NCBI GenBank assembly: GCA_904420535.1
Contig: CAJFVQ010000019.1
Span: 18,989-82,988, forward strand
DNA length: 64,000 bases
DNA from: Candidatus Cryptoclostridium obscurum
Lineage (GTDB): Bacteria; Bacillota; Dehalobacteriia; UBA7702
Direction: 5' to 3'
Every line of letters starts with the position of its first letter. Position 1 is the first letter of the stretch. This document shows positions 3,033 through 45,384 of this stretch, piece after piece. The translations under genes were made by a program, and so were the position numbers. Below the pieces are notes generated by a model. It saw only the letters and a program-made list of their open reading frames with translations. It did no database searches and was not told the DNA's origin.

Positions 3033-3052
3033 ACGGAATCAACGGAGGTCGC

Positions 3053-7099: not shown

Positions 7100-7113
7100 A
7101 AAGGAGATTCACC

Positions 7114-8609: not shown

Positions 8610-8610
8610 C

Positions 8611-10002: not shown

Positions 10003-11246
10003 GCATTTCTGTTTTGGGAATCGATCATCAATATAGCGCGGAAATCCGAGAAATGGTAGCGTTTACCGAATCGCAAATCATTGAGTTTTCTTCCATGCTG
10101 TTGGAAATGAATGTGGAAGAAGTCGTGATTTTATCCACCTGTAACCGCAGTGAGGTATATTTTTCTTCCAAAAACGCAGATGTGAGCCAAAAAGTTAAAG
10201 AAGCATATATTCGGTATTTTTCCATTGAGGAACAAAAAGACTGCGTCTTTTTGCTTCATGACGATGACGCAATCCATCATATTTTCCGTGTGACATCAGG
10301 CATTGAATCAGCAATCATTGGCGAAGATGAGATTTTGCGTCAAATCAAAGAAGCCTATGAATTCTCTTTGCGTTTTAAAAATACCGGAAAGCGCTTTAAC
10401 CGTTTATTCCAGGAAGCTATCCGCTGCGCCAAAGAAGTGAAAAGCAAATTAAAAATTTCCGAAATTCCCATCTCCACAGGATACATTGGCTTGAAATATT
10501 TGGAAGAACAGGTGGGAACCTTTGAAGGAAAACACATGATGTTGATTGGTTTTGGGGAAATCGGTCAACTTTTCTATCAATACGGAAAAGAACTCCCCTT
10601 CCGTCGTATTACTGTTTGTAACCGCAGCAGAGAAACGGCCGACGCTATTTTGGACGGACAAAAAAGAGATCTATATATTCATCACGATCAATGGAAAGAC
10701 GTGATCAATGATGTGGATATTTTAATTACCGCAACTTCCTGCCCCCACCATATTTTAAAAGCAGAGGAAATGATGGTACGGGAAAAGCCCATTTATATGT
10801 TAGATATGGCAATTCCTCGTAATATTGATAACCAAATTGGAATGCTCAACAACTATCATTTATATAACATTGATGTTTTAAAAGAAATGTCGGCGCAAAA
10901 TGCCGCCAGTCGTTTGGCATTGCGGGATCACGCAGAAGAAATTATTGAAAATTACGTTTCCGACTACAAACGGTGGCTCGATCATTCCGAAGAAGACAAT
11001 GTGATCGAATCCTTAAATCAATCCGTTGACGATATTTTAGATTACCATTTAAAATACCTCTTTCAACGCATCAAAGCCAATGAACGGGAGCAAAAAATCA
11101 TTACCCGTACGATGCAAGCTGCATTGAAAAAGGCTGTACGGAACCCTATCATCGCATTAAAAAATATTGACGACCCGCAAAAACGCGCCCACTATTCCGA
11201 GGTTTTGGAAGAACTGTTCCAGCTGGACAAGGGGGAACCAAAATGA
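9999..11246 (+). CDS. hemA: Glutamyl-tRNA reductase
   Basis: ILSTCNRSEVY motif with catalytic Cys. 415 aa. Confidence 0.85.
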   Translation: MSISVLGIDHQYSAEIREMVAFTESQIIEFSSMLLEMNVEEVVILSTCNRSEVYFSSKNADVSQKVKEAYIRYFSIEEQKDCVFLLHDDDAIHHIFRVTSGIESAIIGEDEILRQIKEAYEFSLRFKNTGKRFNRLFQEAIRCAKEVKSKLKISEIPISTGYIGLKYLEEQVGTFEGKHMMLIGFGEIGQLFYQYGKELPFRRITVCNRSRETADAILDGQKRDLYIHHDQWKDVINDVDILITATSCPHHILKAEEMMVREKPIYMLDMAIPRNIDNQIGMLNNYHLYNIDVLKEMSAQNAASRLALRDHAEEIIENYVSDYKRWLDHSEEDNVIESLNQSVDDILDYHLKYLFQRIKANEREQKIITRTMQAALKKAVRNPIIALKNIDDPQKRAHYSEVLEELFQLDKGEPK

Positions 11247-11842
11247 TACTTCCATTGTTCATCGACGTAACCGGCTGGCCCGTTTTGGTCATCGGCGGCG
11301 GAGAGATCGCATTTCGTAAAGCCCAAGCATTACAGGAAGCCGGTGCGAAGATTACAGTCATGGCACCGGAACTGTCCCAAGAGTGGGAGGGATACTCCTT
11401 TCTCTATCAGAAAGAACGGTACGAGAACCAGCCTTTGGATCACTACCGTTTCGTCGTTGCCGCCACCAACGACAAGAAGCTAAACGAAACCATCGCCGAA
11501 AGGTGTAAAGACGCTGACATCCTTTGTAATACGGCGTCGCATCCCCAAAAGGGCGACGTGATCTTCCCCGGTACTGTGCGGCAGGGAGGCTTTGTTGCGG
11601 CATTGTCCAGTGAAGGCCGAACCCCTTTCCTTACAAAAAAGCTAAAAGAAGATCTGCGAAAGATCTTCTTGGATTATGACGAAGAAACCATCGCGCTCTT
11701 GGGAAAAACGAGAGCATATATTATAGAAAACTATCCGGAGGACAAAGAGCGGCTTTTGAAAAAACTTTCAAAAGCGCCTTTGCACATCATTAAGGAGAAA
11801 GGAAACCATCATGACATTACGCATTGGCTCCAGAGGGAGTAA
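11243..11842 (+). CDS. sirC: Precorrin-2 dehydrogenase / sirohydrochlorin chelatase-like (SirC / CysG N-domain family)
   Basis: Rossmann motif VLVIGGGEIAFRKA. 199 aa. Confidence 0.7.
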   Translation: MILPLFIDVTGWPVLVIGGGEIAFRKAQALQEAGAKITVMAPELSQEWEGYSFLYQKERYENQPLDHYRFVVAATNDKKLNETIAERCKDADILCNTASHPQKGDVIFPGTVRQGGFVAALSSEGRTPFLTKKLKEDLRKIFLDYDEETIALLGKTRAYIIENYPEDKERLLKKLSKAPLHIIKEKGNHHDITHWLQRE

Positions 11843-12704
11843 ACTGGCATTGACCCAAACCAATTTGGTAGCTGACGCCATTCGCGCGGCAAATCCCGGT
11901 CTTGAAGTGGATGTAGTAATCATTAAGACCAAAGGAGATCTGATTCAAGATAAGCCTTTAAATGAAATCGGAGACAAGGGATTGTTTGTAAAAGAAATTG
12001 AAGAAGCCCTATTAAACCACGAAATTGATTTGGCGGTTCACAGCCTTAAAGATATGCCGGGGGAACAACCTCCCGGTTTAGAAATGTCCATCACTCCGAA
12101 AAGAGAAGATCCCAGAGATGTCGTCATTACCTTTGAACCCATGAAATCTCTGGAGAATCTTCCTTTGAACAGCAAAATCGCTACAGGAAGTCCTCGCCGT
12201 ATTGACCAGTTAAAAATACTGCGCCCCGACATTACCGCTATGCCGATCCGGGGCAATGTTGACACTCGTATCCGTAAAAGTAAGGAAAATGGTTACCAGG
12301 GCATTATCCTGGCGGCAGCAGGATTGAACCGTCTCAATATGGAGTATACGGGATTCCCTTTGGAAATCGATACCTTCATCCCGGCTCCTGCCCAGGGAAT
12401 CTTGGGATTGGAAAACCGCGTGGACGATGAGGAAACCCTCGCTTATCTTCGTCCCCTCCATGACGAAGATAGTCACCGACAGGCCCTGGCGGAACGGGCC
12501 TTTCTCCGTTATGTAGACGGCGGCTGCCATGCACCCATGGGGGCGCACTGCGTTATCGAAGGAGAAAATTTCACAATCACCGGCTTCTATCAGGAAGGCG
12601 AAGTTTATCGAAAAGAAAGTCTCTGCGGTGTTCGCGGAGAAGAAAGCGAAAAAGGCAAAGCCCTGGCTTTGTTGTTAAAGGAGAGAGTCAAAAATGAACG
12701 GTAA
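11811..12704 (+). CDS. hemC: Hydroxymethylbilane synthase (porphobilinogen deaminase)
   Basis: N-terminus LRIGSRGSKLALTQT is a HemC signature. Confidence 0.9.
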   Translation: MTLRIGSRGSKLALTQTNLVADAIRAANPGLEVDVVIIKTKGDLIQDKPLNEIGDKGLFVKEIEEALLNHEIDLAVHSLKDMPGEQPPGLEMSITPKREDPRDVVITFEPMKSLENLPLNSKIATGSPRRIDQLKILRPDITAMPIRGNVDTRIRKSKENGYQGIILAAAGLNRLNMEYTGFPLEIDTFIPAPAQGILGLENRVDDEETLAYLRPLHDEDSHRQALAERAFLRYVDGGCHAPMGAHCVIEGENFTITGFYQEGEVYRKESLCGVRGEESEKGKALALLLKERVKNER

Positions 12705-14190
12705 AGTATATTTGGTCGGAGCAGGCCCCGGAGATTACGGACTAATCACATTAAAAGGATTAAATACCATTGAGATCGCCGACGTCCTCGTTTACGACCG
12801 TCTCATTAATGAAAACCTGATCTATCGTACTCCGAAACATTGCGAAAAAATTTACGTCGGTAAACAGGCGGCCAACCATGCATTACCTCAGGACCAAATC
12901 AATGAGCTGCTCTATCAAAAAGCAGCCGAGGGAAAAATCGTAGTACGTTTGAAAGGCGGCGACCCTTATGTTTTCGGTCGCGGCGGTGAAGAAGGGATCT
13001 ATCTGGTAGAACGGGGGATCCCCGTTGAGGTCGTCCCTGGCATCACTTCCAGCATTGCAGGTCCCTGTTATGGAGGAATCCCTGTGACTCACAGAGATTG
13101 GGCATCTTCTTTTCACGTGTTTACCGGGAATTTTAAGGACGAAATCCGCGGATTAAACTTTCCAAACCTTGCGGAACTCGAAGGAACCTTAATCTTCCTC
13201 ATGGGATTTGGAAACCTTGATTATATCACTAACGGCCTGATGCAAGCAGGCAAGGACAAAACTACCCCGGTGGCGGTGATCAGTAAAGCCACAACCCATC
13301 AACAAAAAACGGCTGTGGGGACTTTGGAGACCATCGAACAGATCTGCAAAGACGAGAAAATGGTGCCGCCGGCCATTACCCTTGTGGGCGATGTGGTGAA
13401 ATGTCGGGAGTATCTCAACTTCTTTGAACAGCAGCGGCGGGAAGGCGTTCTGATCCTTAGAGACGCCCGCCAAAGCGATGTTTTTGCCAAAATGCTGATG
13501 CAAAACAATTTTGAACCCGTGGTATGCCCTGTAATCCAAATTGAAAAGAGGGAGCTATCCTCGGAACTGCAAAGTGCCTTTGAACATCTTAAAGACTACA
13601 GTTGGACGGTATTTACTTCGCCCAACGGCGTCAAATCTTTCTTTGAACTGTTTTTGGACAACGACGGCGATATGCGTATGCTCGGCCACATGAAATTTGC
13701 AACTATCGGCAAGGCAACAGCGGAAGTTCTGAAGAAATGGGGTTTTAAAGCTGATTTCATTCCCCAAAAGCAAGTCAGCAACGCCCTGGCCGACGGACTT
13801 TGCGAACTGCTCGGCAGTAATGATCGAATTTTGCTTCCCCGCAGCGCCATTGCCAATAACGATATGGTGGATATTATTACAAAAAGATGCCCTGTGGACG
13901 ATATTAAGATATACGATACTCGCATCAAAACAGAAAATGAAAGCGAGCTAAGATCCCTTTTGAACACCGGTGAAGTGAAATATATTCCCTTTACCAGCGC
14001 TTCCACGGTGGACGGTTTTGTGAAAGCTATTCACAATGACCTTACCGGGTTGGAAAACGTAAAAACCGTCGCCATCGGCCCCATCACCAAAAAGCGTATG
14101 CTGGATTTGGGGATCACTCCGGATCTGGAAGCCACCGACCACAGTTTAGAAGGAATCATCAAAGTATTGGGAGGAAAAAATGTTGATTGA
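12694..14190 (+). CDS. cobA-hemD: Uroporphyrinogen-III C-methyltransferase / uroporphyrinogen-III synthase fusion
   Basis: The N-terminal SUMT domain starts VYLVGAGPGD. The C-terminal ~240 aa are HemD-like. 498 aa. Confidence 0.85.
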   Translation: MNGKVYLVGAGPGDYGLITLKGLNTIEIADVLVYDRLINENLIYRTPKHCEKIYVGKQAANHALPQDQINELLYQKAAEGKIVVRLKGGDPYVFGRGGEEGIYLVERGIPVEVVPGITSSIAGPCYGGIPVTHRDWASSFHVFTGNFKDEIRGLNFPNLAELEGTLIFLMGFGNLDYITNGLMQAGKDKTTPVAVISKATTHQQKTAVGTLETIEQICKDEKMVPPAITLVGDVVKCREYLNFFEQQRREGVLILRDARQSDVFAKMLMQNNFEPVVCPVIQIEKRELSSELQSAFEHLKDYSWTVFTSPNGVKSFFELFLDNDGDMRMLGHMKFATIGKATAEVLKKWGFKADFIPQKQVSNALADGLCELLGSNDRILLPRSAIANNDMVDIITKRCPVDDIKIYDTRIKTENESELRSLLNTGEVKYIPFTSASTVDGFVKAIHNDLTGLENVKTVAIGPITKKRMLDLGITPDLEATDHSLEGIIKVLGGKNVD

Positions 14191-15154
14191 ACGACCGAGA
14201 CGACTGAGAATCAATGAACAAATACGCTCTTTGGTACGGGAAACTCGTTTGAGCACCAAGGAATTGATGTATCCCATTTTTGTAAAAGACGGCAAAGGCA
14301 TCAAAGAGGAGATCGGCGCCATGCCGGGACAATACAGATACTCCATAGATATGCTGTCGGAAGAGATCAAAGCGGTACAGGAAGCCGGCGTTAACCACGT
14401 CATTCTATTCGGGATTCCCTTCGATGAAGACCACGACGCCTGTGGTTCCTCCGCCCATGACCCCAACGGCATCGTACAGCGTGCCATCAGAGAGATCAAA
14501 GAGCACAGCGATATCTTTGTTACCACCGATGTTTGTCTTTGTGAATACACGGATCACGGCCATTGTGGGATCCTGGATCCCGACGGTTATGTCAATAATG
14601 ACAAAACTCTGGAAGTTTTGGCGAAAACCGCGCTAAGTCACGTAGAAGCCGGCGCCGACATGGTAGCCCCTTCCGATATGATGGACGGTCATATTGCGGC
14701 GCTCCGTTCCATTCTTGATGAGAACAACTTTGTCAACACGCCCATCATGGCTTATGCCGTAAAATATGCTTCTAACTTTTACGGGCCTTTCCGCGAAGCG
14801 GCCAATTCCGCTCCGGGAAAAGGAGATCGCAAAGGGTATCAGATGGATTATCACAACAGCCGTGAAGCAGAAGTGGAGGCAGCTTTGGACGTAAAGGAAG
14901 GCGCTGACATTATCATGGTCAAACCAGCCCTCCCCTATTTGGATATCATTGCTAAATTGCGTCCCCAGATCAAAAAGCCCATGGCGGCATACTGTGTCAG
15001 CGGTGAATACTCTATGATGAAACTGGCAGTAGATAAGGGAATCGTTTCCGAAGATCTTATTTATGAAAGTCACATTGCTATGAAACGCGCCGGCGCCGAT
15101 GCCATTCTGACATACTTTGCCAAAGACTTGGGCAAATTCCTCCAGGAGGTTTAA
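14180..15154 (+). CDS. hemB: Porphobilinogen synthase (ALA dehydratase)
   Basis: 324 aa, HemB-like. GGAGG RBS upstream. Confidence 0.85.
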   Translation: MLIERPRRLRINEQIRSLVRETRLSTKELMYPIFVKDGKGIKEEIGAMPGQYRYSIDMLSEEIKAVQEAGVNHVILFGIPFDEDHDACGSSAHDPNGIVQRAIREIKEHSDIFVTTDVCLCEYTDHGHCGILDPDGYVNNDKTLEVLAKTALSHVEAGADMVAPSDMMDGHIAALRSILDENNFVNTPIMAYAVKYASNFYGPFREAANSAPGKGDRKGYQMDYHNSREAEVEAALDVKEGADIIMVKPALPYLDIIAKLRPQIKKPMAAYCVSGEYSMMKLAVDKGIVSEDLIYESHIAMKRAGADAILTYFAKDLGKFLQEV

Positions 15155-15156
15155 CG

Positions 15157-16446
15157 ATGTGCAAAAATAATAACAAAGAGGAAATTTTGGCATTAAGCAG
15201 AAAGATCATGCCTGGTGGCGTCAACAGTCCAGTACGTGCGTTTCAATCCGTTGAAGTCGCCCCTGTCATTGTGGAATCTGCCCATGGGCCTTATATCAAA
15301 GATATTACCGGCAAAGAGTATATTGACTACGTTTGCTCCTATGGTCCATTAATCTTTGGCCACGCACCACAATTCCTTATTGAGGAAATTCAGGCAGCAG
15401 CGGAAAGCGGGACTACTTACGGATTTACAACCCCCCACGAAGTGGAATTGGCAGAATTGGTCATTGAATCCTACCCGTCCTGTGAAATGATCCGGATGGT
15501 CAACAGTGGTACCGAAGCCACAATGAGCGCCATTCGCGTTGCGCGAGGTTATACCGGGCGCAATAAAATTTTGAAATTTGAAGGATGTTATCACGGCCAC
15601 AGCGACAGTTTATTAGTAAAAAGCGGCAGCGGCCTTTTGACTCAGGGAGTTCCCACCAGCCCTGGTCTGGTACCCGCCTTAGTGGAGCAGACCCTCGTTT
15701 GCCCTTATAATGATGAAGAAGCCCTGGCGGAAATGATCCGAGCCAATCAAGATGAAATCGCCTGCGTGATTTTGGAACCCATCGCCGGAAATATGGGAGT
15801 TTTGGCGCCCCATGAGGGCTATTTGGAAGCGGTACGCAAGCTCTGCACGGAAAACGGCATCGTTTTGATCTTTGATGAAGTCATTACGGGCTTTCGTGTC
15901 GATTACCACTCCGCAGCTGGCGTTTTTAATATTGATCCCGATATGGTTTGTTTCGGGAAGATCATCGGCGGCGGCCTGCCCGTAGGCGCTTACGGCGGCA
16001 AATTGGAAATCATGAAAATGGTCTCCCCTGTGGGGCCGGTATACCAAGGGGGCACCCTTTCCGGCAATCCTTTGGCAATGCGTGCCGGCATCGCCACATT
16101 AAAACGTTTAAAATCCAATCCTGTTATTTACAAAACCTTGGAAGAAAACGCAACCTATCTGAACCGTGGAATCACCGAAGCAATCCAGAAATATCACATC
16201 CCTGCTGTAACCTCCCAATTCAAAGGGATGTTTTGCCTATTCTTTACGGATCGTCCCGTGTCCTCCTATGATGACGTCATGAAATGTGATACGGAACTGT
16301 ACAAGAAATTCTTCGAAGGTATGATGAATGAGGGAATTCTGCTTGCACCTTCTCAGTTTGAAGCATGGTTCCCCTCGACAGCTCATACCAAAGAAGTGTT
16401 GGATCAGACCATTGCGGCAGTCAATCAAGTTTTCGCGAAATTATAA
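15157..16446 (+). CDS. hemL: Glutamate-1-semialdehyde 2,1-aminomutase
   Basis: 429 aa aminotransferase class III with a HemL-like N-terminus. Confidence 0.85.
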   Translation: MCKNNNKEEILALSRKIMPGGVNSPVRAFQSVEVAPVIVESAHGPYIKDITGKEYIDYVCSYGPLIFGHAPQFLIEEIQAAAESGTTYGFTTPHEVELAELVIESYPSCEMIRMVNSGTEATMSAIRVARGYTGRNKILKFEGCYHGHSDSLLVKSGSGLLTQGVPTSPGLVPALVEQTLVCPYNDEEALAEMIRANQDEIACVILEPIAGNMGVLAPHEGYLEAVRKLCTENGIVLIFDEVITGFRVDYHSAAGVFNIDPDMVCFGKIIGGGLPVGAYGGKLEIMKMVSPVGPVYQGGTLSGNPLAMRAGIATLKRLKSNPVIYKTLEENATYLNRGITEAIQKYHIPAVTSQFKGMFCLFFTDRPVSSYDDVMKCDTELYKKFFEGMMNEGILLAPSQFEAWFPSTAHTKEVLDQTIAAVNQVFAKL

Positions 16447-16460
16447 TAAAGGAGTTTGGA

Positions 16461-17156
16461 ATGAAAGGTAAATTTTACGGCATCGGCGTTGGTCCCGGAG
16501 ATCCCGAATTGTTGACCATCAAAGGCAAACGGATCTTGGAAGAAGCGGATTATATTGCCACTCCCAAAACAAAAGGAGATAGCGAAAGCACGGCGCTCCA
16601 TATCGTTTCTCCATATATCGAGGGAAAAGAAGTGATCGAGCTGGTACTTCCGATGACAAAGGATCCTGCCATTTTGGAGCAGGCTTGGAATGATGGGGCA
16701 AAGTGCATTATGGAATACCTGGATCAAGGGAAAAACGTTGCTTTCATCACTTTGGGTGACCCTTCCCTTTTCAGTACGTTTATGTATGTTTTCCGTCCCG
16801 TGCGGGCAGCGGGATATGCCTGGGAAATTGTTCCCGGCGTTACTGCTCCCAGTGCTGCCGCGGCCAAACTGGGAATCGGTTTGGCTGACGGTAAAGAAAA
16901 TATCGCTATTTTAGCGGCAACTACAGACCTGGAAAATGTAGAACGCACCATTGACAACCATGATAATACCGTTTTAATGAAAGGGGCCGGCAAGTGGGAA
17001 GCCATTGCCGAGATCTTGAAAAAGAAGGGTCTGACCGAAAAAACCGCCGCAGCGGAACGCTGCACTATGGAAGGGGAACGATTATTCCCCGATATCAATG
17101 AAATGCCTGAGGATCTCAGCTATTTCCTCACCGCCATTATCAGAAAGGGGTTATGA
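16461..17156 (+). CDS. cbiL: Cobalt-precorrin-2 C20-methyltransferase
   Basis: N-terminus FYGIGVGPGDPELLTIKG. RBS AGGAG. The ORF-track start at 16365 lies inside hemL and is rejected. Confidence 0.8.
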   Translation: MKGKFYGIGVGPGDPELLTIKGKRILEEADYIATPKTKGDSESTALHIVSPYIEGKEVIELVLPMTKDPAILEQAWNDGAKCIMEYLDQGKNVAFITLGDPSLFSTFMYVFRPVRAAGYAWEIVPGVTAPSAAAAKLGIGLADGKENIAILAATTDLENVERTIDNHDNTVLMKGAGKWEAIAEILKKKGLTEKTAAAERCTMEGERLFPDINEMPEDLSYFLTAIIRKGL

Positions 17157-17160
17157 TCGC

Positions 17161-17919
17161 ATGAATCTCGTGAATATTGTCGGGGCGGGCCCCGGCGATC
17201 CTGAACTTATTACCGTCAGAGGAATGAATCTTTTACAAGAAGCCGATATTGTCATTTATGCCGGCTCCCTTGTGAATCCCAAACTTCTGGACTACTGTAA
17301 AAAAGACTGCACCATTTACGACAGCGCAGGCATGAACTTAGACGAAGTCATTGCAGTCATCAAAGAAGAATATCCCAAAGGGAAAAAGATCGTGCGTCTC
17401 CACACCGGCGATCCTTCCATCTATGGCGCCATTCGCGAACAAATGGATATTTTGGAAGGGGCGGGTATTCCCTTCCGAGTGACTCCCGGGGTCAGCTCTT
17501 TCTGCGCCGCAGCGGCAGCGCTGAAAAAGGAATACGTTTTACCCGAAGTCAGCCAGACAGTGATCCTCACCCGTATGGAAGGCCGCACTCCCGTACCGGA
17601 AAAGGAAGATATTCGCAACCTGGCGAAGATCAATGCCACAATGATCATCTTTTTAAGTGTCCACATGATTGAAGATTTGGTGGAACGTTTAAAGGAAGGG
17701 TACCCCGAAGATACGCCGGCAGCAGTGGTTTACAAAGCCTCCTGGCCCGAAGAAAAACAAGTGGTAGGTACTTTGGCGGACATTGCGGAAAAAGTCCATG
17801 AAGCCCAGATCGGACGCACCGCCTTAGTGACTGTGGGACGGTTCCTCGGAGATGAATACGCGTTATCCAAACTGTACGATAAGGGTTTTTCACACGGTTA
17901 TCGGGAAGCCAAAGAATAA
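17161..17919 (+). CDS. cbiF: Cobalt-precorrin-4 C11-methyltransferase
   Basis: N-terminus VNIVGAGPGDPELITVRG. 252 aa. Confidence 0.8.
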   Translation: MNLVNIVGAGPGDPELITVRGMNLLQEADIVIYAGSLVNPKLLDYCKKDCTIYDSAGMNLDEVIAVIKEEYPKGKKIVRLHTGDPSIYGAIREQMDILEGAGIPFRVTPGVSSFCAAAAALKKEYVLPEVSQTVILTRMEGRTPVPEKEDIRNLAKINATMIIFLSVHMIEDLVERLKEGYPEDTPAAVVYKASWPEEKQVVGTLADIAEKVHEAQIGRTALVTVGRFLGDEYALSKLYDKGFSHGYREAKE

Positions 17920-20914: not shown

Positions 20915-21330
20915 TTCAACGTTAATTCCTTTATCTTGTGTGAACATCTAATTAATATTTGAAAACAAATCAGCTTTTTACCGAGCTGTCTGCCTCATTG
21001 GAGTTATTGTAACATAGGAAATTTTATTTGTAAATATAATGCCATTTCATTCAAAACTATAGCAGGTTAGTATCTCAAGAATCAAGGTATTCATTGACAA
21101 TCCATATTTATAACAAAAAAACATACATGATTCCATATTTTGACATTGGTAAAATTTATCGCACAAATCTGCTTTTTTGGATTTTACTGCTCCATTCTAT
21201 ACAAATTCAAGCAGGATAATCCTATTTTTCAAATTACCATCCTAGCCAAAGGAGGTCTTGCATGCTATAATATCAACATCAGAACAAATTATTCCACTCA
21301 AGGAAAAGAGTATCTGTCATTCATCACGAG

Positions 21331-22275
21331 GTGATTAAAATGATTAAATTGGACATCGTTTCCGGATTTTTAGGAGTCGGCAAAACGACCCTAATCAAAC
21401 GATATCTAAAAGCTCTATCCTGTCGAAAGGAAAAAGTCATTCTCATTGAAAATGACTTTGGAGAGATTGGAATTGATAAAGACATTCTAAAAATTGGCGA
21501 TCTTGATATTTATGAAATCAATAGAGGATGCCTATGTTGCAGTTTGAAAGGAACATTCATCGACACATTGCTTCTCATCGCCGAACAGGTCAAGCCTGAT
21601 CGCGTGATCCTGGAACCTTCCGGTATTTTCATTTTAAGCGAAATCTTTGAACTTTTCCGTTATTACCAGATCAGCGACGCCTATGAAATCGGTGGAGTTG
21701 TCACTGTTATTGATGGCCCTCACTTTCGAGATCACCAAGTAAGGTTTGGAAATTTTCTAACCAATCAGATCGATAACGCAGCGCACTTGATGCTCAGTAA
21801 AACATCGGAAATGAAAGAAAATGAACTTTTGGAAGTTGTTGAGGAATTAAGTGACACTTTTCATGGAAAAGAGATTATTGCAAAAGATTGGCGCGATATC
21901 AGCGATGAGGAATTATTACAGATTTTTATCGGTGACGGTACCATCCAAGGAAAGGTCTTAACCGGCAAAGCATTGAAAGAAAAAAAGCAAGAGCGCAGTC
22001 ATCAAGGATTCAGCAGTTATTCATTTTACGGGGGTTCCCCTCTCTCCCCAGAAGAACTGAAGCAAAAACTTCTGTTGTTAAACTCTAAAAACTTTGGAGA
22101 GATCATCCGGGCAAAGGGATTTGTCAAAGAAAAAGAAAACAATCGCTTTCTGGAATTCCATTATGTGGACGGTTCCATTGAAATTCTGCCCAATCAAAAC
22201 AATGATCTCAAAGCCGGCTCATGCTTCATTGGGAAAGATTTGCAAAAAGACGCCTTGGCAGAATTTTTCCAATAA
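21331..22275 (+). CDS. COG0523 / CobW-family G3E P-loop GTPase (putative metallochaperone)
   Basis: Walker A SGFLGVGKTTL, the CxCC metal motif NRGCLCCSL and a C-terminal CobW_C-like domain. 314 aa. Confidence 0.8.
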   Translation: MIKMIKLDIVSGFLGVGKTTLIKRYLKALSCRKEKVILIENDFGEIGIDKDILKIGDLDIYEINRGCLCCSLKGTFIDTLLLIAEQVKPDRVILEPSGIFILSEIFELFRYYQISDAYEIGGVVTVIDGPHFRDHQVRFGNFLTNQIDNAAHLMLSKTSEMKENELLEVVEELSDTFHGKEIIAKDWRDISDEELLQIFIGDGTIQGKVLTGKALKEKKQERSHQGFSSYSFYGGSPLSPEELKQKLLLLNSKNFGEIIRAKGFVKEKENNRFLEFHYVDGSIEILPNQNNDLKAGSCFIGKDLQKDALAEFFQ

Positions 22276-22282
22276 AAAAATA

Positions 22283-22310
22283 AAAGCTTATTTGCAATAA
22301 GCTTTTATGA
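22283..22310 (+). terminator. Rho-independent terminator after the COG0523 gene
   Basis: Hairpin AAAGCTTATTTGCAATAAGCTTTT. Confidence 0.55.
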
Positions 22311-22500
22311 AATGAAGTAAAGCGATAGCTTACAATAACGAAAGGAGGGTAGGCTTTTATAAAACCATTACGCAACATTTCGTATTTTGCTATCTTCAAT
22401 GATCAAATTTAGTATAGCAAATCTCCGATTTTGTTGCAAGGATAATTTTTTTAACAATTATCAAAAAAAAGTACAAAACTTATTGAAAAGGAGATTGAAA

Positions 22501-23880
22501 ATGGCAAGATTAGAATTTAATGAATTAGCTTACAACAATGCCGACGAGCTTATTTTTGGAAAATCGAAAAAACCTGTTACTTGTAAAAACGGTCTTGTAG
22601 TCGGCGGCGGCGAAGTGATTCCCGAATTAAACTATACCCTCCCCATGATGCAGATTACCGAAGAAACCATGCCCAAGGTGCTACAACATTACAAAGAAAT
22701 GACCACCAGCGCTTGTGAAAAAGCCATTGAGCTGAGTGCTCCCTCCCTTTGTTTTGAAATCGAATTGCTTCCAAACTGTACTTTTCATCCCAAATGGGGA
22801 ATTGAAGTCGTAAAGACTGTTGTTGATGTTGCCAAAGAATTTGAAGCAAAATCCAACACGAAATTTATCGTTAGAAATACCCCTGTTGACATCCGTGAAG
22901 GAAAAGGACTTGAACATATGTATCATGGTATGCACTGGGATGCTATTATGGAAACTTTTGCCGGCGGTGCGGAAGCTGGCGCTGATTTGATGGCCATTGA
23001 ATCCATTGGTGGAAAACATATCCATGACGATGCTCTGATGATGGGTGAAATGGATAAATTACTCTTTGCTTTGGGCGTTGTGGGATGCAAAGATATGGGC
23101 ATCCTCTGGGATAACATTGTAAAAATCGGGAAAGAAAAGGACGCGATACCTTCTGGCGATACTGCCTGCGGTTTTGCCAATACCGCGATGGTTCTTGGAA
23201 ACCAGGGGCTCATTCCCCGTACCTGTGCGGCCGTAGATCGCGTTATGACGGCTGTCCGCACCATGGTCGCGGTGGAAGCGGGAGCAATCGGTCCCGACAA
23301 GGATTGCGGCTATGAAGGAGTTTACATGAAAGCCATCACAGGCACTCCCATCTCTATGGAAGGCCGCACCAGCGCTTGTGCACACAGTTCTCATGTCGGC
23401 AATATTGTCGGTGCAATATGCGATATGTGGTCCAATGAATCAGTACAAAATATTCGCTTACTCGGTGGCATGGCTCCCACTGTGTATACCGAACAACTGG
23501 TTTATGATTGCCGCATGATGAATACCGCCACAAAATTAGGGAAAGCCGACGTTTTAAAAGAAATTTTCGTTGAATCTGACAAAGCTTTGGAACCCCATGG
23601 GTACATTATGGACCCCAAAGTTGTCGTCGAAATTTCCAAAAAAATCGTTGCTGCCAAAGGTCATTTTGAAAGAACCAGAATTGCCGCTTTAGCAACCATT
23701 GACGCTCTCAGAAAAGGCTATGACAACAAAGAACTTCTTTTGGCCGACAGAGAATACAGATATCTCGATGTCATGGAAGCATCTCTCAGTAGTGTAACCA
23801 CTGATGTCGAGGCATTTACCGATGAAATGAAAAAAGCCTGTGCCAGCGAAAAATTCAAACCAGAATGGTATGATCTTTAA
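22501..23880 (+). CDS. mtaB: MtaB-family methanol:corrinoid methyltransferase
   Basis: Collinear similarity to Methanosarcina MtaB as recalled from memory. Matching blocks include ELAYNNADELIFGKSK, GADLMAIESIGGK, SGDTACGFANTAM, AVEAGAIGPDKDCGYEGVYMKAITGTPISMEGRTSACAHS and MWSNESV. About 459 aa. RBS AAAGGAG. The ORF-track start at 22387 is an upstream extension. Confidence 0.85.
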   Translation: MARLEFNELAYNNADELIFGKSKKPVTCKNGLVVGGGEVIPELNYTLPMMQITEETMPKVLQHYKEMTTSACEKAIELSAPSLCFEIELLPNCTFHPKWGIEVVKTVVDVAKEFEAKSNTKFIVRNTPVDIREGKGLEHMYHGMHWDAIMETFAGGAEAGADLMAIESIGGKHIHDDALMMGEMDKLLFALGVVGCKDMGILWDNIVKIGKEKDAIPSGDTACGFANTAMVLGNQGLIPRTCAAVDRVMTAVRTMVAVEAGAIGPDKDCGYEGVYMKAITGTPISMEGRTSACAHSSHVGNIVGAICDMWSNESVQNIRLLGGMAPTVYTEQLVYDCRMMNTATKLGKADVLKEIFVESDKALEPHGYIMDPKVVVEISKKIVAAKGHFERTRIAALATIDALRKGYDNKELLLADREYRYLDVMEASLSSVTTDVEAFTDEMKKACASEKFKPEWYDL

Positions 23881-23948
23881 TTTACCATAGCCCACACTTC
23901 ATAATATACTTCATAATATTTTGAACATTTTTATCATCTTTATTTTGC

Positions 23949-23987
23949 TTTAAGGGGAAAATGATTCCCCTTAAGGCTCTTTTTTCA
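23949..23987 (+). terminator. Rho-independent terminator after mtaB
   Basis: Hairpin CTTAAGGGGAAAATGATTCCCCTTAAG followed by CTCTTTTTT. Confidence 0.7.
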
Positions 23988-24126
23988 CATATGGTAGGTT
24001 AGCCTGAAAATTTATTCAAATTTTTCATTGTAGCTTATATTATCATCAGGTATAATGAAAAAAGAGACCATACAATAAAGATGTCATAATACACGAATCG
24101 TCAAATTGTTTCGAGGAGATGACAAA

Positions 24127-25428
24127 ATGGGTAACTCTGAATTCCAATGGCTCGATACAAGTAAAGAAAAGGGCTTTCTGGAAAAAGCACTGCGTTCTTT
24201 CTCCACGTTCAGTGGTTTGAAAGCATCCTTAGTGGATAAAGAGGGAAATACCGTAGTCAGTACGGAAAATTATGTACCGGACTGTAGATTTTGTCAACTG
24301 ATTAAAAGTGATCCACAGGGAAAACAAAAATGCCGCCGTTCTTATGCTCGTGCCGGTCGTGAAGCGGCAAAATACGGGGAGCCTTATGTTTTTCGTTGCC
24401 ATGCAGGTTTGGTGGCGTGGGCAGTGCCTATTATTATCAACAAACATCAAGGGGCTGTCATCTGCGGCCAGGTTTTAATGTGGGAGCCAGAAGACTATTT
24501 TTTAGACGAAATTGGTATGATGGTAAAAGATCTGGACGTCAATATTTCTGAAATTAAGATGGCAGCACTGCAGTTAAACGTGTTACCCAGTGATAAAGTA
24601 CAAGCCATCACCGATTTACTTTTTGTCATCGCCAACCAAATCATGAATCATGAATCTACTTTCTTTTCGGAACAAAAAAGCATCGCAGCATATCAAGCAT
24701 TGCTTTCAGAAGAAATCAGCGAGTCAAAAAAGAAAAATAAATACAAAATGACAAAGAATCTTGCAGACGGCCTTTCTCTTCAAGGAGAAGAACGGGAATT
24801 AATGGCAAAGGTTCGCAGTGGAGAAAAGGATTCGGCAGAAAAATTACTGGATCACTTGTTAATTACGATCATCAATCACAATACGGGAAATCTCGGCGAT
24901 GTAAAAGCCAGAATCATTGAATTACTGGTAATGATTTCCCGCGCCGCCGTGGATGGAGGAATGGACTCTAAAGAAATCCGCAACCTAAATAGCCGTTTTT
25001 ATGAGGAACTTTATGCAAAACGAACGACGGAAGAAATTTGTTATTGGACAAAAAATGTCGTCAGTATTTTTTCCGAAGAAGTCAGAAAAGCCAAAGGAAA
25101 CGACAACCTGCAAGCAGTTTATGCAGCGGGAGAATACATCCAAAAACATTTTCGAGAAAAACTATCCATTCAATCCATCGCTGAAGTAGTTCATCTCAGC
25201 CCAAGCTATTTAAGTCATATTTTCAGCCAAACTTTTGGCTATACCATAACGGATTATGTGACATATATCCGTTTAGAAAATGCAAAGTCAATTTTGAGTA
25301 AAAGCGGCACCAGCATCAGCGAAGCAGCTTTGGATTCAGGATTTGAAGATATCAGCTATTTTTCCAGAGTGTTTAAGAAAGTGGAAGGCATTAGTCCACG
25401 AGAATACAAGAAGAGGCAATTACCATGA
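24127..25428 (+). CDS. PocR sensory domain + AraC-family HTH transcriptional regulator
   Basis: The N-terminal ~170 aa resemble a PocR ligand-binding domain. The C-terminal ~100 aa form an AraC-type HTH (YLSHIFSQTFGYT...FEDISYFSRVFKK). The start is at the ATG with a GAGGAG RBS. Confidence 0.75.
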   Translation: MGNSEFQWLDTSKEKGFLEKALRSFSTFSGLKASLVDKEGNTVVSTENYVPDCRFCQLIKSDPQGKQKCRRSYARAGREAAKYGEPYVFRCHAGLVAWAVPIIINKHQGAVICGQVLMWEPEDYFLDEIGMMVKDLDVNISEIKMAALQLNVLPSDKVQAITDLLFVIANQIMNHESTFFSEQKSIAAYQALLSEEISESKKKNKYKMTKNLADGLSLQGEERELMAKVRSGEKDSAEKLLDHLLITIINHNTGNLGDVKARIIELLVMISRAAVDGGMDSKEIRNLNSRFYEELYAKRTTEEICYWTKNVVSIFSEEVRKAKGNDNLQAVYAAGEYIQKHFREKLSIQSIAEVVHLSPSYLSHIFSQTFGYTITDYVTYIRLENAKSILSKSGTSISEAALDSGFEDISYFSRVFKKVEGISPREYKKRQLP

Positions 25429-26078
25429 GCAAAGAAGATATGGAGTGCATTCAAGAAGCTGTATTAAACGGTCAGGCCAACAAAGTAAAGATCTTGACCA
25501 CCCTTGCCATTGAAAATGGGATTGACCCCGGAGAGATTCTATTTGAGGGTTTGTTAGAACCATTAAAGGTCATAAGCCAAAAATTAAAAAGTAATGAAAT
25601 TTTTACAGCGGAAGTTCTGATCATTTCCAGAGCAGTTCACGCAGGTCTTCATGTTTTAGGCCCCTTTCTCAGCGAATCTCATCAAAATCTCCGCGGAAAA
25701 GTCATTATTGGCACTGTTGCTGGGGATCTCCACGATATTGGCAAGAACCTCGTCGCAATGACATTGGAAAGTTTGGGAATGAAAGTTATTGACCTTGGCA
25801 TCGACGTTTATCCTGAAGATTTTGTGGCTGCAGTCATAGAACACAAACCAGATTTTGTAGCACTTTCCGCCATGCTGACAACAACCATCAACATGATCGT
25901 GGAAACCGTCCATAAACTGGAGGTTGCAGGCTTGCGCAAAAATGTCAAGGTCATCATTGGCGGCAACCCCGTGACCAATGATTTTTGTTTTTCCTCCGGT
26001 GCCGACGGTACCTGCGAAGAATTAAAAGAGATCGAAGATATGGTACGCCATCTCAAACCCTCGCTGTTTAAAGATTAG
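25425..26078 (+). CDS. mtaC: MtaC-like corrinoid (cobalamin-binding) protein
   Basis: N-terminal B12-binding_2 cap helix bundle, then a Rossmann B12 domain with the DxHxxG motif (GDLHDIGKN). 217 aa. ATGA overlap with the regulator stop. Confidence 0.8.
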   Translation: MSKEDMECIQEAVLNGQANKVKILTTLAIENGIDPGEILFEGLLEPLKVISQKLKSNEIFTAEVLIISRAVHAGLHVLGPFLSESHQNLRGKVIIGTVAGDLHDIGKNLVAMTLESLGMKVIDLGIDVYPEDFVAAVIEHKPDFVALSAMLTTTINMIVETVHKLEVAGLRKNVKVIIGGNPVTNDFCFSSGADGTCEELKEIEDMVRHLKPSLFKD

Positions 26079-26087
26079 AAAAATGAT

Positions 26088-26118
26088 AAAAACCACTGTA
26101 GTAAAACAGTGGTTTTTT
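26088..26118. terminator. Bidirectional terminator between the convergent mtaC and mtaD genes
   Basis: Hairpin AAAACCACTGTAGTAAAACAGTGGTTTTTT. Confidence 0.7.
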
Positions 26119-26130
26119 TATTTGCTTTAT

Positions 26131-27414
26131 TTACATTCGTGCCGCACGGTGTTGAACCTCTTGGTAAAGTTTCCCTTCGTCTATATTGACACATTTTCTT
26201 TCCCGTACGATAATTTTTCCATTGACGATTACCGTATGAACATCACCGCTCTTCATGCAATAAACCAGATGGCTCAAAAGGCTGTGCCGCTCCGTTCGCG
26301 GATAAAAATGGGGCCGCCAGAGAGAAATGATGTTGATGTCGGCCTTTTTCCCTACTTCCAAAGTACCGATTTCATCGTCAAGTCCCAAGGCTTTGGCGCC
26401 GTTGATCGTAGCCATGGACAACGCCTCGTAGGGGTTGAGAGCATCGGCATCCTTTTGGGCGACCTTTTGCAAAAGTATTGCGGTACGCATTTCTTCAACC
26501 ATATCGAGGTCATTGTTACTGGCCGCGCCGTCAGTACCCAATGCAATGGGCACGCCATGTTTTTTTAACTCCCCATGGGGGAAAATTCCGGAAGCCAATT
26601 TCATGTTGCTTTGGGGACAATGAATCGCCGAAACGCCACGTTCCCCTGCCAACTCCATTTCGGATTCATCTAAATGAACCATATGGGCTGCCAGCACTTT
26701 GTGCCGCAAAAGGCCGGTGGAATCAAGATATTGCAGCGCGCGTTTGCCGTGGTTTCGCAGACAGGCTTCCTGCTCTATTTCGGTCTCCGCCACATGAATA
26801 TGGATCGGCAATCCTGTTTCCTCCGCAGCATGGGCGATACTTTGCAGGTAATTTTCGGAACAACTGTAAAGGGCGTGAGGAGCCAACATAAAATGGATCC
26901 GTCCTTCCAGATCGTTTTCATGTTCTTTCGCAAACCGGAGGGCTTCTCTCAAGTAGTATTCGCCGCGGCCGTCGTAATCTACCAATCCTGCCCCAAGCAC
27001 CCCACGGATCCCGCTGGTCTCTGCAGCCCAGATCGCAGATCCCGGATCGAAGTACATATCGGCATAGCAGGTAGTACCACTTTTCAGCATCTCTAAATGG
27101 GCCAAAAGGTTACCTAGATAAAAATCCTCGTCAGTGAGACTATTTTCAGCAGGGCGGATCACATCTTGCAGCCATTGTTCCAAAGGAAGCCCTTCACCGT
27201 AACCGCGCAACATGGTCATGGCGGCATGGGTATGACAGTTCACAAAACCAGGCAAAGCGCATTTATCCTGGCCATAGATGATCTCATCTCCCCATTTGGG
27301 GACAATATCTCCCATAGCAGTAATTCGCTGTCCCTCGATACGTATGGAACCATGATGGAATTCTCCCCTACCCGTCATGGGCAGGTATAAAATATCTTTA
27401 ATAAATATCGCCAT
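26131..27414 (-). CDS. mtaD: 5'-methylthioadenosine/S-adenosylhomocysteine deaminase (amidohydrolase superfamily)
   Basis: HxH metal motif FVNCHTHAAMTMLRG. 427 aa. Similar to the chlorohydrolase/MtaD subgroup. Confidence 0.75.
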   Translation of the reverse strand: MAIFIKDILYLPMTGRGEFHHGSIRIEGQRITAMGDIVPKWGDEIIYGQDKCALPGFVNCHTHAAMTMLRGYGEGLPLEQWLQDVIRPAENSLTDEDFYLGNLLAHLEMLKSGTTCYADMYFDPGSAIWAAETSGIRGVLGAGLVDYDGRGEYYLREALRFAKEHENDLEGRIHFMLAPHALYSCSENYLQSIAHAAEETGLPIHIHVAETEIEQEACLRNHGKRALQYLDSTGLLRHKVLAAHMVHLDESEMELAGERGVSAIHCPQSNMKLASGIFPHGELKKHGVPIALGTDGAASNNDLDMVEEMRTAILLQKVAQKDADALNPYEALSMATINGAKALGLDDEIGTLEVGKKADINIISLWRPHFYPRTERHSLLSHLVYCMKSGDVHTVIVNGKIIVRERKCVNIDEGKLYQEVQHRAARM

Positions 27415-27416
27415 AA

Positions 27417-28436
27417 TTATCCCAGCATTTCCGCGATGCCTTTTTGGTAATCCCCGTGAATAATTCCTTTCTCCGTGATAATCGCTGTAATGAGCTCATG
27501 AGGCGTCACATCGAAGGCGGGATTCACCACCGGCACTTCTCGGGGAGCGGTAAAAATGCCGCCCAGAGAACGTACTTCATCGCCATTTCTTTCTTCTATG
27601 ATAATATCCTTTCCCGTGGCTGTCGTCAAGTCAAAAGTTGACAACGGCGCTGTAATATAAAAAGGAATTTTATGGTACTGCGCCAGAACAGCCAGGCCGT
27701 AGGTTCCAATCTTATTGGCGGCATCGCCGTTGGCCGCGATGCGGTCGGCCCCGGTGATCACCAGATCAATTTTCCCCTGCCCCATAAGATAAGCGGCCAT
27801 ATTATCGGTAATCAGCGTGACGGGAATATGGTCCTCCATCAATTCATAAGCCGTGAGGCGGGCGCCTTGGAGCAGCGGACGCGTTTCATCAGCATAGACC
27901 ATGGAAACTTTTCCCTGTTCATGACCGCGGCGAATAATTCCAAGGGCTGTACCGTAACCGCCGGTGGCCAATGCTCCCGCATTGCAATGCGTCAAAATAT
28001 GAGCATGATCGGGAATCAACGTCGCTCCGTATGCCGACAAAACCTTGCAGCGGGAAATATCATCCTCTTCGATCTCTTTTGCCTTATCTAACAAAGATTG
28101 AGGATCATAGGTTCCGCCGTTTCCCTGCCAAACACTTCTCATTTGCTCCAAAGCCCAGAAAAGGTTGACTGCCGTAGGCCGCGTTGCGGCAATCGCTTTT
28201 TCCGCTTCCTCCATAAATTTTCGGAAATTTCCCAATGTGGGATTCCATGCCTCGGCGGCGATGACCATTCCATAGGCCCCCGCAATGCCAATGGCAGGAG
28301 CCCCACGCACCGCCAATGTCCGGATCATTTCGCAAACGTCCTCCACGGTTTTGCAAGCTATGATTTTTACCTCATTGGGTAAAAGACGCTGATCCAAAAG
28401 ATAGAGACAATGGTTTTTCCATTCAATGTGTTTCAT
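27417..28436 (-). CDS. mtnA: S-methyl-5-thioribose-1-phosphate isomerase
   Basis: eIF-2B alpha/beta/delta-like. N-terminus HCLYLLDQRLLP is typical of MtnA. Confidence 0.8.
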   Translation of the reverse strand: MKHIEWKNHCLYLLDQRLLPNEVKIIACKTVEDVCEMIRTLAVRGAPAIGIAGAYGMVIAAEAWNPTLGNFRKFMEEAEKAIAATRPTAVNLFWALEQMRSVWQGNGGTYDPQSLLDKAKEIEEDDISRCKVLSAYGATLIPDHAHILTHCNAGALATGGYGTALGIIRRGHEQGKVSMVYADETRPLLQGARLTAYELMEDHIPVTLITDNMAAYLMGQGKIDLVITGADRIAANGDAANKIGTYGLAVLAQYHKIPFYITAPLSTFDLTTATGKDIIIEERNGDEVRSLGGIFTAPREVPVVNPAFDVTPHELITAIITEKGIIHGDYQKGIAEMLG

Positions 28437-28465
28437 AGTTTCACACTTTCCTCAAACTGTCGACA

Positions 28466-29248
28466 TTATTTCACAGGTCCCGCTGTTCCGCGGCACTGGC
28501 AATCTCCGTTCCCGGCGATCAGTGGAATTGCCGCCAACAACAAAGATTTAATGGTTGCTGAATTCTCTGCCATAACTTCCAGCACCTCTTCATGAGTGAG
28601 GTGCGTCGGACTGACACCGGCAGCATAATTTGTCACCATGGCAATGGTGGCATAACACATTCCGACTTCTCTGGCCAAGGCCACTTCCGGGAAGGAAGTC
28701 ATGCCTACAAGATCACCGCCCATATGACGGTACATTTTAATTTCCGCCGGAGTTTCAAACCGGGGCCCCTCAGTACAGACATATACGCCGCCATCGTGAG
28801 CTTGATGAGCGATTGCTGATGCAGCCTGGGTCAACCCTTTCCGCAAGTGGGGGCAGTATGGTTCCGTCATATCCGTATGAACAACCCCCATATCCCCGCC
28901 GTCAAAAAATGTGCATTGTCTGGCTTTGGTAAACTCTAAATACTGATCGGGAAAGACAAAGTGTCCCGGAGCCATATCCAAATTCAAAGATCCTACCGCG
29001 GCAGTTGCCATAATTTTGGTAACACCGAGTTCCTTCAATCCCCAGATGTTGGCGCGATAATTGATCATGTGGGGAGGTACCGAATGGCCTTTGCCATGAC
29101 GGTTCATAAATACCACATCAAAGCCTTGATAATTGCCGGTCACAGCGTTCATCATGCCGTAGGGCGTGGAAACGCCGACTTCCTTCACATCCCCCAGGAT
29201 GCTGGGGTCATAAACACCGGTGCCACCGATAATTGCGATTTTCTCCAT
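28466..29248 (-). CDS. mtnP: S-methyl-5'-thioadenosine (or -thioinosine) phosphorylase
   Basis: N-terminus IAIIGGTG. PNP/MTAP family. 260 aa. Its ATG lies 3 nt after the ftsY stop and has a GGAGG RBS. Confidence 0.8.
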   Translation of the reverse strand: MEKIAIIGGTGVYDPSILGDVKEVGVSTPYGMMNAVTGNYQGFDVVFMNRHGKGHSVPPHMINYRANIWGLKELGVTKIMATAAVGSLNLDMAPGHFVFPDQYLEFTKARQCTFFDGGDMGVVHTDMTEPYCPHLRKGLTQAASAIAHQAHDGGVYVCTEGPRFETPAEIKMYRHMGGDLVGMTSFPEVALAREVGMCYATIAMVTNYAAGVSPTHLTHEEVLEVMAENSATIKSLLLAAIPLIAGNGDCQCRGTAGPVK

Positions 29249-43852: not shown

Positions 43853-43915
43853 AATAATCTCCAATTTTTTTATTTGTCTTATTATACAGGAAAAAACGAC
43901 AAAATTCAACTCAAG

Positions 43916-44299: not shown

Positions 44300-44320
44300 A
44301 ATAATCCCTCCTTCTCAATT

Positions 44321-44689: not shown

Positions 44690-44700
44690 TTTGGTACCTC

Positions 44701-45330: not shown

Positions 45331-45358
45331 AAAAGCTCCGATTTTCTCGGAGCTTTTT
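45331..45358 (-). terminator. Rho-independent terminator downstream of the SASP gene
   Basis: Hairpin AAAAGCTCCGATTTTCTCGGAGCTTTTT. Confidence 0.7.
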
Positions 45359-45384
45359 ATAATAGCACTAGAAGCAATACTTAT

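Follow-up and report, generated by a model that had tools for sequence, protein, structure and literature searches.

A predicted reduced mta cluster, with a corrinoid protein coupled to its regulator, in an uncultured relative of Dehalobacterium

Background

The mta operons of Eubacterium limosum, Acetobacterium woodii and Sporomusa start with mtaR, which encodes a regulator of the PocR-AraC type, and continue with a corrinoid-protein gene, mtaC1 (PMC13602510, PMC12456013). MtaR was shown genetically in 2026 to activate the mta promoter, and it is needed for methanol induction in E. limosum (PMC13602510, PMC12456013). S. sphaeroides expresses mtaR and mtaC1 constitutively, and its catalytic genes are induced by methanol. 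For E. limosum, mtaBC2A is by itself enough to restore methanol growth. MtaR alone in E. coli is methanol-independent, and the 2026 E. limosum study states that the sensing mechanism is unresolved. Here we compare these systems with a locus of four genes at 21331-26078 of a 64 kb stretch of contig CAJFVQ010000019.1, the whole of which we call the window. The genes encode a CobW-like GTPase of COG0523, the methanol:corrinoid methyltransferase MtaB, a PocR-AraC regulator and a corrinoid protein (CoP).

Other parts of the comparison are also in the literature. Haas et al. 2009 described COG0523 genes beside corrinoid-dependent methyltransferase genes, explicitly mtaABC (PMC2770081), and in D. kuznetsovii genes of B12 biosynthesis are co-expressed with mta genes. 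Ca. Formimonas warabiya grows on methanol, fermenting it to acetate (PMC8163858), and Desulfosporosinus orientis is listed among the methanol users (PMC5770442). UBA7702 is an order within the GTDB class Dehalobacteriia, alongside Dehalobacterium and Ca. Formimonas, and this class has a Wood-Ljungdahl methyl branch that is conserved throughout (PMC10327494).

An earlier note on this DNA held that the gene set is unusual and that the locus looks like a distinct, possibly uncharacterised variant of a corrinoid methyltransferase system. We believe neither claim stands. Judged by sequence comparison, the locus does not represent a new system but the known bacterial mta cluster in reduced form, since its parts are known and are commonly found together. 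As a methanol-utilisation locus it is ordinary. The more useful outcome is a clade of corrinoid proteins that tracks PocR-AraC regulators across different methyltransferase systems. This clade offers a testable answer to the question raised by the 2026 work on E. limosum, namely how MtaR can sense methanol and yet be independent of it when alone in E. coli.

MtaB and the four genes

The four plus-strand genes described in the earlier note are real, and a Pfam profile search of all four places them in the families that were named. The gene at 22501..23880 (+) encodes a predicted zinc-dependent methanol:corrinoid methyltransferase, an MtaB-type methyltransferase (MTI). It matches PF12176 over profile positions 3-460 of 460 with 544.5 bits against a cut-off of 25, so the assignment to the MtaB family is borne out over the full length of the model. 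The structure of Methanosarcina barkeri MtaB, 2i2x_A, matches the window protein over residues 2-457 with an E-value of 1.2e-88. The likeness to M. barkeri MtaBC (2I2X) is one of fold-level homology with conserved zinc ligands: E167, C223 and C269 of the window protein align with the zinc-ligand positions in 2i2x_A and are invariant in 20 homologues. The corresponding M. barkeri ligands are Glu164, Cys220 and Cys269, as reported by Hagemeier et al. 2006. The cut-off of the methanogen MtaB equivalog, NF040651, is not reached (420.8 versus 720 bits), and by these comparisons the window protein belongs to the bacterial branch of the MtaB family.

The closest relatives of this MtaB are in uncultured organisms. 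A metagenome-assembled genome (MAG) labelled uncultured 'Peptococcaceae' has a protein 95% identical to it and a human-gut reference MAG has one that is 80% identical, followed at 69-72% by UBA7702 and by MAGs from an anaerobic membrane bioreactor (AnMBR), the rumen and the Hadza gut. On the strength of such matches we place the organism in the Dehalobacteriia, as an uncultured inhabitant of gut or digester related to Dehalobacterium and 'Peptococcaceae'; by the same evidence it is not a Negativicute.

The open reading frames (ORFs) of cobW, mtaB and the regulator open further upstream, at 21331, 22387 and 24106, than their likely starts, which are the ATG codons at 21340, 22501 and 24127. A GGAG-type ribosome-binding site (RBS) lies ahead of each of these codons. 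The same three starts are called on public contigs with the identical locus, which recurs in metagenome contigs from ENA and Logan. None of the four genes is disrupted, and across several species they are under strong purifying selection. Compared with L007 (the L-numbers are our labels for the related loci that were fetched), the rate of nonsynonymous substitution, dN, is 0.03-0.11 for the four genes. For mtaB the synonymous rate, dS, is 1.45 and dN/dS is 0.02; for the other three genes dN is 0.05-0.11 (0.107 for cobW) and dS is saturated.

A common gene set in reduced form

To judge how common the gene set is, we surveyed 48 MtaB loci from other species, each with at least 5 kb of flanking sequence on both sides. 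Near mtaB there is a corrinoid protein in 33 of the 48, a CobW-like gene in 30 and a PocR-AraC regulator in 28, and all three accompany MtaB together in 22. RACo was found in 15/48 loci and MtaA of the query type in 14/48. A gene set whose four families all occur together in 22 of 48 loci, whose COG0523 link was published in 2009 and whose regulator-corrinoid pair is known from acetogens as mtaR-mtaC1 can hardly be called unusual.

The gene order is conserved as well. Gene-neighbourhood comparison finds the order mtaB-mtaR-CoP in Dehalobacteriia and Desulfitobacteriia: it is kept in Ca. Formimonas warabiya, in about a dozen Desulfosporosinus genomes, in Desulfitobacterium hafniense, in Dehalobacterium and in strain LX-D. 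The arrangement of the window itself recurs in L007-L014, whose MtaB identities span 95% to 65%. The parts are therefore known, they are commonly together, and relatives that use methanol have the same order, which leaves little of the claim of a distinct variant. Taken together, the acetogen operons, the 2009 work on COG0523, the survey and the conserved order show that this arrangement is largely a standard one among methylotrophs.

The most instructive comparison is with the clusters of Formimonas, Desulfosporosinus and D. hafniense, which have the layout (mtaA) cobW(-) mtaC mtaB mtaR CoP (mtaA). They share with the window the mtaB-regulator-CoP order and a CobW-like neighbour. Their MtaB is 57-62% identical to that of the window and their partner CoP is 52-59% identical and belongs to the same clade. 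However, they have two genes that the window lacks, a canonical mtaC immediately before mtaB and an mtaA of the Pterin_bind type, and several of them, as well as LX-D, also carry RACo, which is likewise missing here. Their cobW is divergent, whereas the window cobW is on the same strand as mtaB. In LX-D a second corrinoid gene lies about 3.5 kb upstream of mtaB, before a hydantoinase-like gene and mtaA. Both this second corrinoid gene and mtaA are absent from the loci of the window lineage (L007-L014, L091) and from Dehalobacterium (L087). The Dehalobacterium locus (GCA_039631005.1) consists of cobW(-), mtaB, the regulator and the corrinoid protein without mtaA, so a cultured organism bears the same reduced set.

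The earlier note also set the arrangement apart from the described methanol systems of methanogens and acetogens, and for the mtaCB(A) order of methanogens and Moorella this holds. In M. barkeri and Moorella mtaC adjoins mtaB with no regulator between them, and the window differs.

The same note had reported that the window contains neither a methyl-corrinoid:tetrahydrofolate (THF) methyltransferase, which is the pterin-binding MtaA type and which we abbreviate MTII, nor an activase of the RACo/RamA kind. Pfam typing covered nearly every ORF of at least 150 aa in the window, including all of at least 400 aa; the ORFs left out are 11243-11842, 61541-62350 (the only one of MtaA size), 62347-63384 and 63402-63989. 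None of the typed ORFs encodes a Pterin_bind, URO-D or RACo protein, and a tblastn search of the window with two bacterial MtaA proteins gave no match. The reported absence holds for the window.

A corrinoid protein of the regulator-coupled clade

The corrinoid gene of the locus (25425..26078, +; PF02607 and PF02310) lies 1.5 kb downstream of mtaB, behind the regulator. Its product shares with M. barkeri MtaBC and Moorella thermoacetica MtaABC the corrinoid-protein architecture of a B12-binding_2 plus a B12-binding domain. The motif DLHDIG (DxHxxG) is found at aa 101 and GG at aa 179, and SxL is replaced by SAM. The Met in place of Leu in this last motif is conserved across the regulator-coupled clade. 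Scores against TIGR02370, which has a cut-off of 215.3 bits, separate the proteins in the same direction: the window protein reaches 147 bits, other regulator-coupled CoPs 168-193, and the Moorella-like CoPs of the same loci 214-225. The best NCBIfam match, MtgC_2 with 228 bits, would suggest specificity for glycine betaine, but we rejected this since both corrinoid clades score 228-255 against it, all below the cut-off.

We built trees of the corrinoid proteins, the acetogen MtaC1 and MtaC2 excepted, by neighbor joining with 60 bootstraps. The window protein groups with the CoPs that follow regulators in 58/60 bootstraps. The M. thermoacetica structure 1Y80, presumably MtaC (its PDB title is only 'predicted cobalamin binding protein'), groups with CoPs adjacent to mtaB, and 57/60 replicates exclude the regulator-coupled set from that group. 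In the trimmed alignment the identity of 1Y80 is 55-61% with the mtaB-adjacent CoPs and 41% with the window protein. An extended clade, found in 48/60 bootstraps, unites the window protein with the partner CoPs of L092-L095, four of the six sampled loci described below, and of the second LX-D pair, and the other corrinoid proteins of the L092-L095 and LX-D loci join the 1Y80 clade.

The corrinoid gene of the window is thus in the regulator-coupled clade rather than the one formed by 1Y80 and the mtaB-adjacent proteins. The earlier note described a regulator inserted between mtaB and mtaC, but the trees argue for something else: the canonical mtaC is missing, and the corrinoid gene that is present is the partner gene of the regulator. 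We assign the window protein, by its place in the trees, to an uncharacterised subfamily that sits directly behind PocR/AraC regulators and is distinct from the Moorella MtaC clade. The literature we searched assigns no function to the regulator-corrinoid pair.

Six homologues of the regulator (39-45% identity) were chosen on long contigs, blind to their context. A corrinoid gene follows the regulator by at most 120 nt in all six loci, and none of the six has MtaB within 8 kb. In four of them the pair lies behind a Moorella-like corrinoid gene and an MTII gene (with RACo too in two), in one it lies behind two genes of the MttB family, and in one there is no methyltransferase gene nearby. More distant lineages look different. 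In L033, L040 and similar loci the regulator-adjacent CoPs resemble the local catalytic type. Therefore adjacency of regulator and CoP is general, while the clade is lineage-restricted.

Some loci have more than one pair. Strain LX-D (L089 15698-17677) and Zhaonella formicivorans (L092 31-2133, 8001-10079) each have two PocR-AraC plus CoP pairs in one locus. These pairs adjoin a set of corrinoid, hydantoinase-like, MTII and RACo genes as well as glycine reductase genes, and the Zhaonella locus is free of MTI within 8 kb. A Hydantoinase_A/MutL-like protein of about 650 aa recurs between the canonical corrinoid and pterin-binding MTII genes (L092, L089, L097), besides RACo.

The regulator and the GTPase

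The regulator gene is at 24127..25428 (+). Its product has PF10114 at residues 25-182 (140.6 bits) and PF12833 with PF00165 at residues 345-437. We call it MtaR-type because an N-terminal PocR domain is joined to a C-terminal AraC helix-turn-helix (HTH) in a protein of about 430 aa, it is encoded in an mta cluster, and a corrinoid gene is next to it. Of 43 homologues (24-100% identity), 88-98% share the cysteines C53, C56, C69 and C91 of the PocR domain, which suggests a metal or cluster site in the sensory domain. Salmonella PocR, which regulates cob and pdu, resembles it in the fusion of a PocR domain to an AraC HTH and in the link to B12-dependent metabolism. However, the equivalog cut-off for that protein is not reached (154.8 versus 500 bits), the window regulator is paired with a corrinoid gene, and its predicted effector differs.

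The likeness to the acetogen mtaR-mtaC1 operons is closer in layout, with a PocR plus AraC regulator followed directly by a corrinoid gene, and MtaB besides. As in Sporomusa, where mtaR and mtaC1 are expressed apart from the catalytic genes, the regulator and CoP of the window appear to form a separate unit. The differences are that the acetogen pair leads its operon whereas the window pair follows mtaB, that the window is without a corrinoid gene of the mtaC2 type and without equivalents of mtaA, mtaX or mtaY, and that a COG0523 gene leads the cluster.

That COG0523 gene (21340..22275, +) encodes a G3E GTPase that is CobW-like (PF02492 with 116.7 bits, and PF07683, CobW_C) and is a putative metallochaperone. 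A Walker A motif, GFLGVGKT, is at aa 9 and CLCC, the CxCC motif, at aa 64. Its best solved relative is YjiA (1nij). With 100.8 against 332.1 bits it does not reach the cut-off of the CobW equivalog TIGR02475, the cobalt chaperone of aerobic B12 synthesis. It resembles subfamily 13 of Haas et al. 2009 in its co-localisation with corrinoid methyltransferase genes and in its GTPase and CxCC motifs, a likeness of context and motif and not a membership drawn from phylogeny. We considered and dropped the idea that MtaW of the acetogens is a CobW-like gene, since the source calls MtaW 'hypothetical'.

A sister sub-clade has something else in this place. In L009-L013 (about 9060-9590) and L091 (3091-6769) the place of cobW just before mtaB is taken by a CobO/BtuR ATP:corrinoid adenosyltransferase gene (PF02572), and a CobW-like gene lies 5-8 kb away on the opposite strand. 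Upstream of the CobO-type gene there is a P-type metal ATPase where typed (L009, L091), preceded in L091 by an ArsR-type regulator.

Transcription units

The regulator stop codon overlaps the start of the corrinoid gene (ATGA), therefore we treat these two genes as one unit. An intrinsic terminator follows mtaB at 23947..23977 (+), with a 13-bp stem and then a T-run (-20.3 kcal/mol, z-score -4.97). A bidirectional terminator, found by the scan on both strands, lies at 26088..26117 between the corrinoid gene and a convergent amidohydrolase gene (-17.8 kcal/mol, z-score -5.95). After cobW there is an AT-rich hairpin at 22280..22308 (+; -11.6 kcal/mol, z-score -4.25) that may be a weak terminator; its stem is kept in L007 and L008 and its loop differs. 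From the terminators, the hairpin and the overlap we derive three units: cobW, mtaB and regulator-corrinoid. The earlier note had given each gene its own terminator or RBS. This is correct for the RBS of cobW, mtaB and the regulator and for the terminators after mtaB and the corrinoid gene, but the regulator and corrinoid genes form one bicistronic unit and the hairpin after cobW is only a possible terminator.

Upstream of cobW a consensus scan found a promoter-like site at 21243..21271 (+), TAGCCA-17-TATAAT with a TG extension (10/12 matches), whose predicted function is that of the cobW promoter. Its TAGCCA and TGCTATAAT blocks are kept in L007, and the -10 block is also kept in L008, where the first block is AGCAAA. 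Upstream of mtaB a conserved non-coding block of 36 nt at 22415..22450 (+), containing CAAATCTCCGATTTT, is a candidate promoter and activator site. It is near-identical in the window and in L007 and L008, which are two other species, and the non-coding sequence that flanks it has diverged. Motifs resembling this block lie at 20966 and 21164, upstream of cobW, in a pattern derived from these same sites. For the motif CAAATCWSCNWTTTT three of four matches in the window fall in the regions upstream of cobW and mtaB, the regions from which the pattern was derived. An operator motif common to the three intergenic regions was rejected, as the regions are AT-rich with many chance repeats, and we keep CAAATCWSCNWTTTT only as a lead because it was derived from the sites it is found in. 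Riboswitch control of the mta genes was also rejected: the only Rfam match in the window is a cobalamin riboswitch at 306-483.

What the locus may do

With modest confidence we lean towards reading the locus as the methanol-inducible MtaB front end of a methanol:tetrahydrofolate methyl transfer, with a control unit of its own and with the downstream genes elsewhere. MtaB, a zinc enzyme, would activate methanol and methylate the Co(I) centre of a corrinoid protein, for which the co-encoded CoP is the obvious candidate. The COG0523 GTPase would most likely supply metal, probably Zn, to MtaB. The MtaR-type regulator would switch on the cobW and mtaB promoters upon methanol, and it would be made with its partner corrinoid protein from the separate bicistronic unit. 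MTII and RACo would be encoded elsewhere in the genome, probably shared with other methyltransferase systems, and methyl-THF would then enter the Wood-Ljungdahl methyl branch. The conserved mtaB-regulator-CoP order in relatives that use methanol (Ca. F. warabiya and the genus of D. orientis) supports this reading. A shared MTII and activase are realistic given a statement to that effect in PMC13391211 and the existence of stand-alone back ends, CoP-MTII(-RACo) without an adjacent MTI, in L092, L094, L096 and L097.

Several points weigh on the other side. MTII, the activase and the canonical MtaC are all absent within 64 kb, and the corrinoid protein that is there is not an orthologue of 1Y80, being 41% identical to it and in a different clade. 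The derivation of the operator motif is circular. The likeness of the window regulator to the tested MtaR of E. limosum is one of domain architecture and not of sequence comparison. Finally, the reduced set recurs in Dehalobacterium, and D. formicoaceticum, which is not known to use methanol, passed for a long time as an obligate dichloromethane user (PMC10327494); a set of this kind may therefore be insufficient for growth on methanol. If the front-end reading is right, gut, rumen and digester relatives of Dehalobacterium are to be added to the likely bacterial consumers of methanol, and they would be rivals of methylotrophic methanogens for the methanol that comes from pectin.

The strongest rival concerns the corrinoid protein. 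It may be mainly a signalling partner of the regulator and not a catalytic carrier, with the catalytic CoP and the MTII elsewhere in the genome. MtaB would methylate this partner when methanol is present, and the PocR-AraC regulator would in turn be controlled by the state of the partner's cobalt, by its methylation or by how far it is loaded with B12. We find this quite possible, though we lean against it. Every PocR-AraC homologue of at least 39% identity that we examined, in the MtaB-linked clade loci as in the six loci without MtaB, has a corrinoid gene within 120 nt, and the partner CoPs form one clade (the 48/60 grouping) whether the neighboring MTI is MtaB, of the MttB family or absent. 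The same loci have a second corrinoid gene, like Moorella MtaC, beside MtaB or MTII, and LX-D and Zhaonella even have two pairs each. The acetogen results point the same way: mtaR and mtaC1 of S. sphaeroides are constitutive beside methanol-induced catalytic genes, mtaC1 is dispensable for catalysis in E. limosum where mtaBC2A suffices, and MtaR alone in E. coli does not respond to methanol.

There are also arguments against it. The interaction of the two proteins is predicted from gene linkage, and the corrinoid protein retains all the cofactor-binding features of the catalytic type. In L087, L093 and the window no other corrinoid gene lies near the MTI, as would be expected if the protein were catalytic. 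The regulator-adjacent CoPs of L033, L040 and similar loci cluster with the catalytic type, and acetogen MtaC1 is a presumed member of the clade. PocR domains, moreover, are thought to bind small molecules directly. As a wider proposal, and tentatively, we suggest that PocR-AraC regulators of anaerobic methylotrophy may form two-protein sensors with a dedicated CoP subfamily, so that the substrate is sensed through catalysis and not by direct ligand binding; the 'MtaC' of the window might then be a sensor component.

A second rival is that the reduced locus does not serve methylotrophic growth but is the leftover of a fuller cluster, kept for some lesser task, for instance to recover methyl groups from trace methanol. 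Against this count the methanol that pectin yields in the gut and rumen, four intact genes under strong purifying selection across several species and the conservation of promoter and terminator elements. We therefore think it unlikely, despite the fuller clusters with mtaC and mtaA in sister lineages, the absence of these two genes from the window lineage and Dehalobacterium, and the history of D. formicoaceticum as a supposed obligate dichloromethane degrader that has the same reduced set.

To our knowledge all characterised members of PF12176 are methanol enzymes. That this MtaB homologue acts on some other methyl donor is very improbable, given the conserved zinc site and the methanol users among the relatives with 57-62% identical MtaB, and only the score below the methanogen equivalog cut-off and a report (PMC12450230) that Methanosarcina MtaBC is required for ethane formation from ethanol speak for it. 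The kinship with Dehalobacterium and Formimonas had also led us to consider a chloromethane or dichloromethane dehalogenase. CdmB and MecE, however, are members of the UroD superfamily and not of MtaB, and we rejected the idea for that reason.

Surroundings of the locus

The B12 operon that the earlier note placed nearby is real. It is a cbi/hem operon at 598-17919 (+), headed by the cobalamin riboswitch at 306-483 (+; RF00174, 74.4 bits). Its genes include CobQ, CbiB, CbiC, CbiD, CbiET-like, CbiG, CbiJ and CbiA, together with HemA, HemC, CobA/HemD, HemB, HemL and several TP_methylases. The earlier note called the operon complete, but the typed genes of the window, a set that leaves out ORF 11243-11842, include neither a cobalt chelatase nor nucleotide-loop genes.

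Downstream of the locus come genes of methionine salvage and then housekeeping genes (FtsY, SMC, RNase III, PlsX, acetate kinase, RecG, MinD, RodA, PBP2). The methionine-salvage genes at 26131-29248 (-) encode an amidohydrolase resembling methylthioadenosine/S-adenosylhomocysteine (MTA/SAH) deaminase, MtnA and MTA phosphorylase; they run towards the corrinoid gene and end at the same terminator. A functional link between the two was considered and rejected, since the linkage is not kept in relatives. Further along, the stretch 43900-46200 (mostly -) has a low GC content (0.36) and only small ORFs and is possibly a phage remnant. By eye, 44321-44689 is like a phage terminase small subunit, 43916-44299 is like a small sigma factor, and 45385-45651 resembles a small acid-soluble spore protein of the alpha/beta type.

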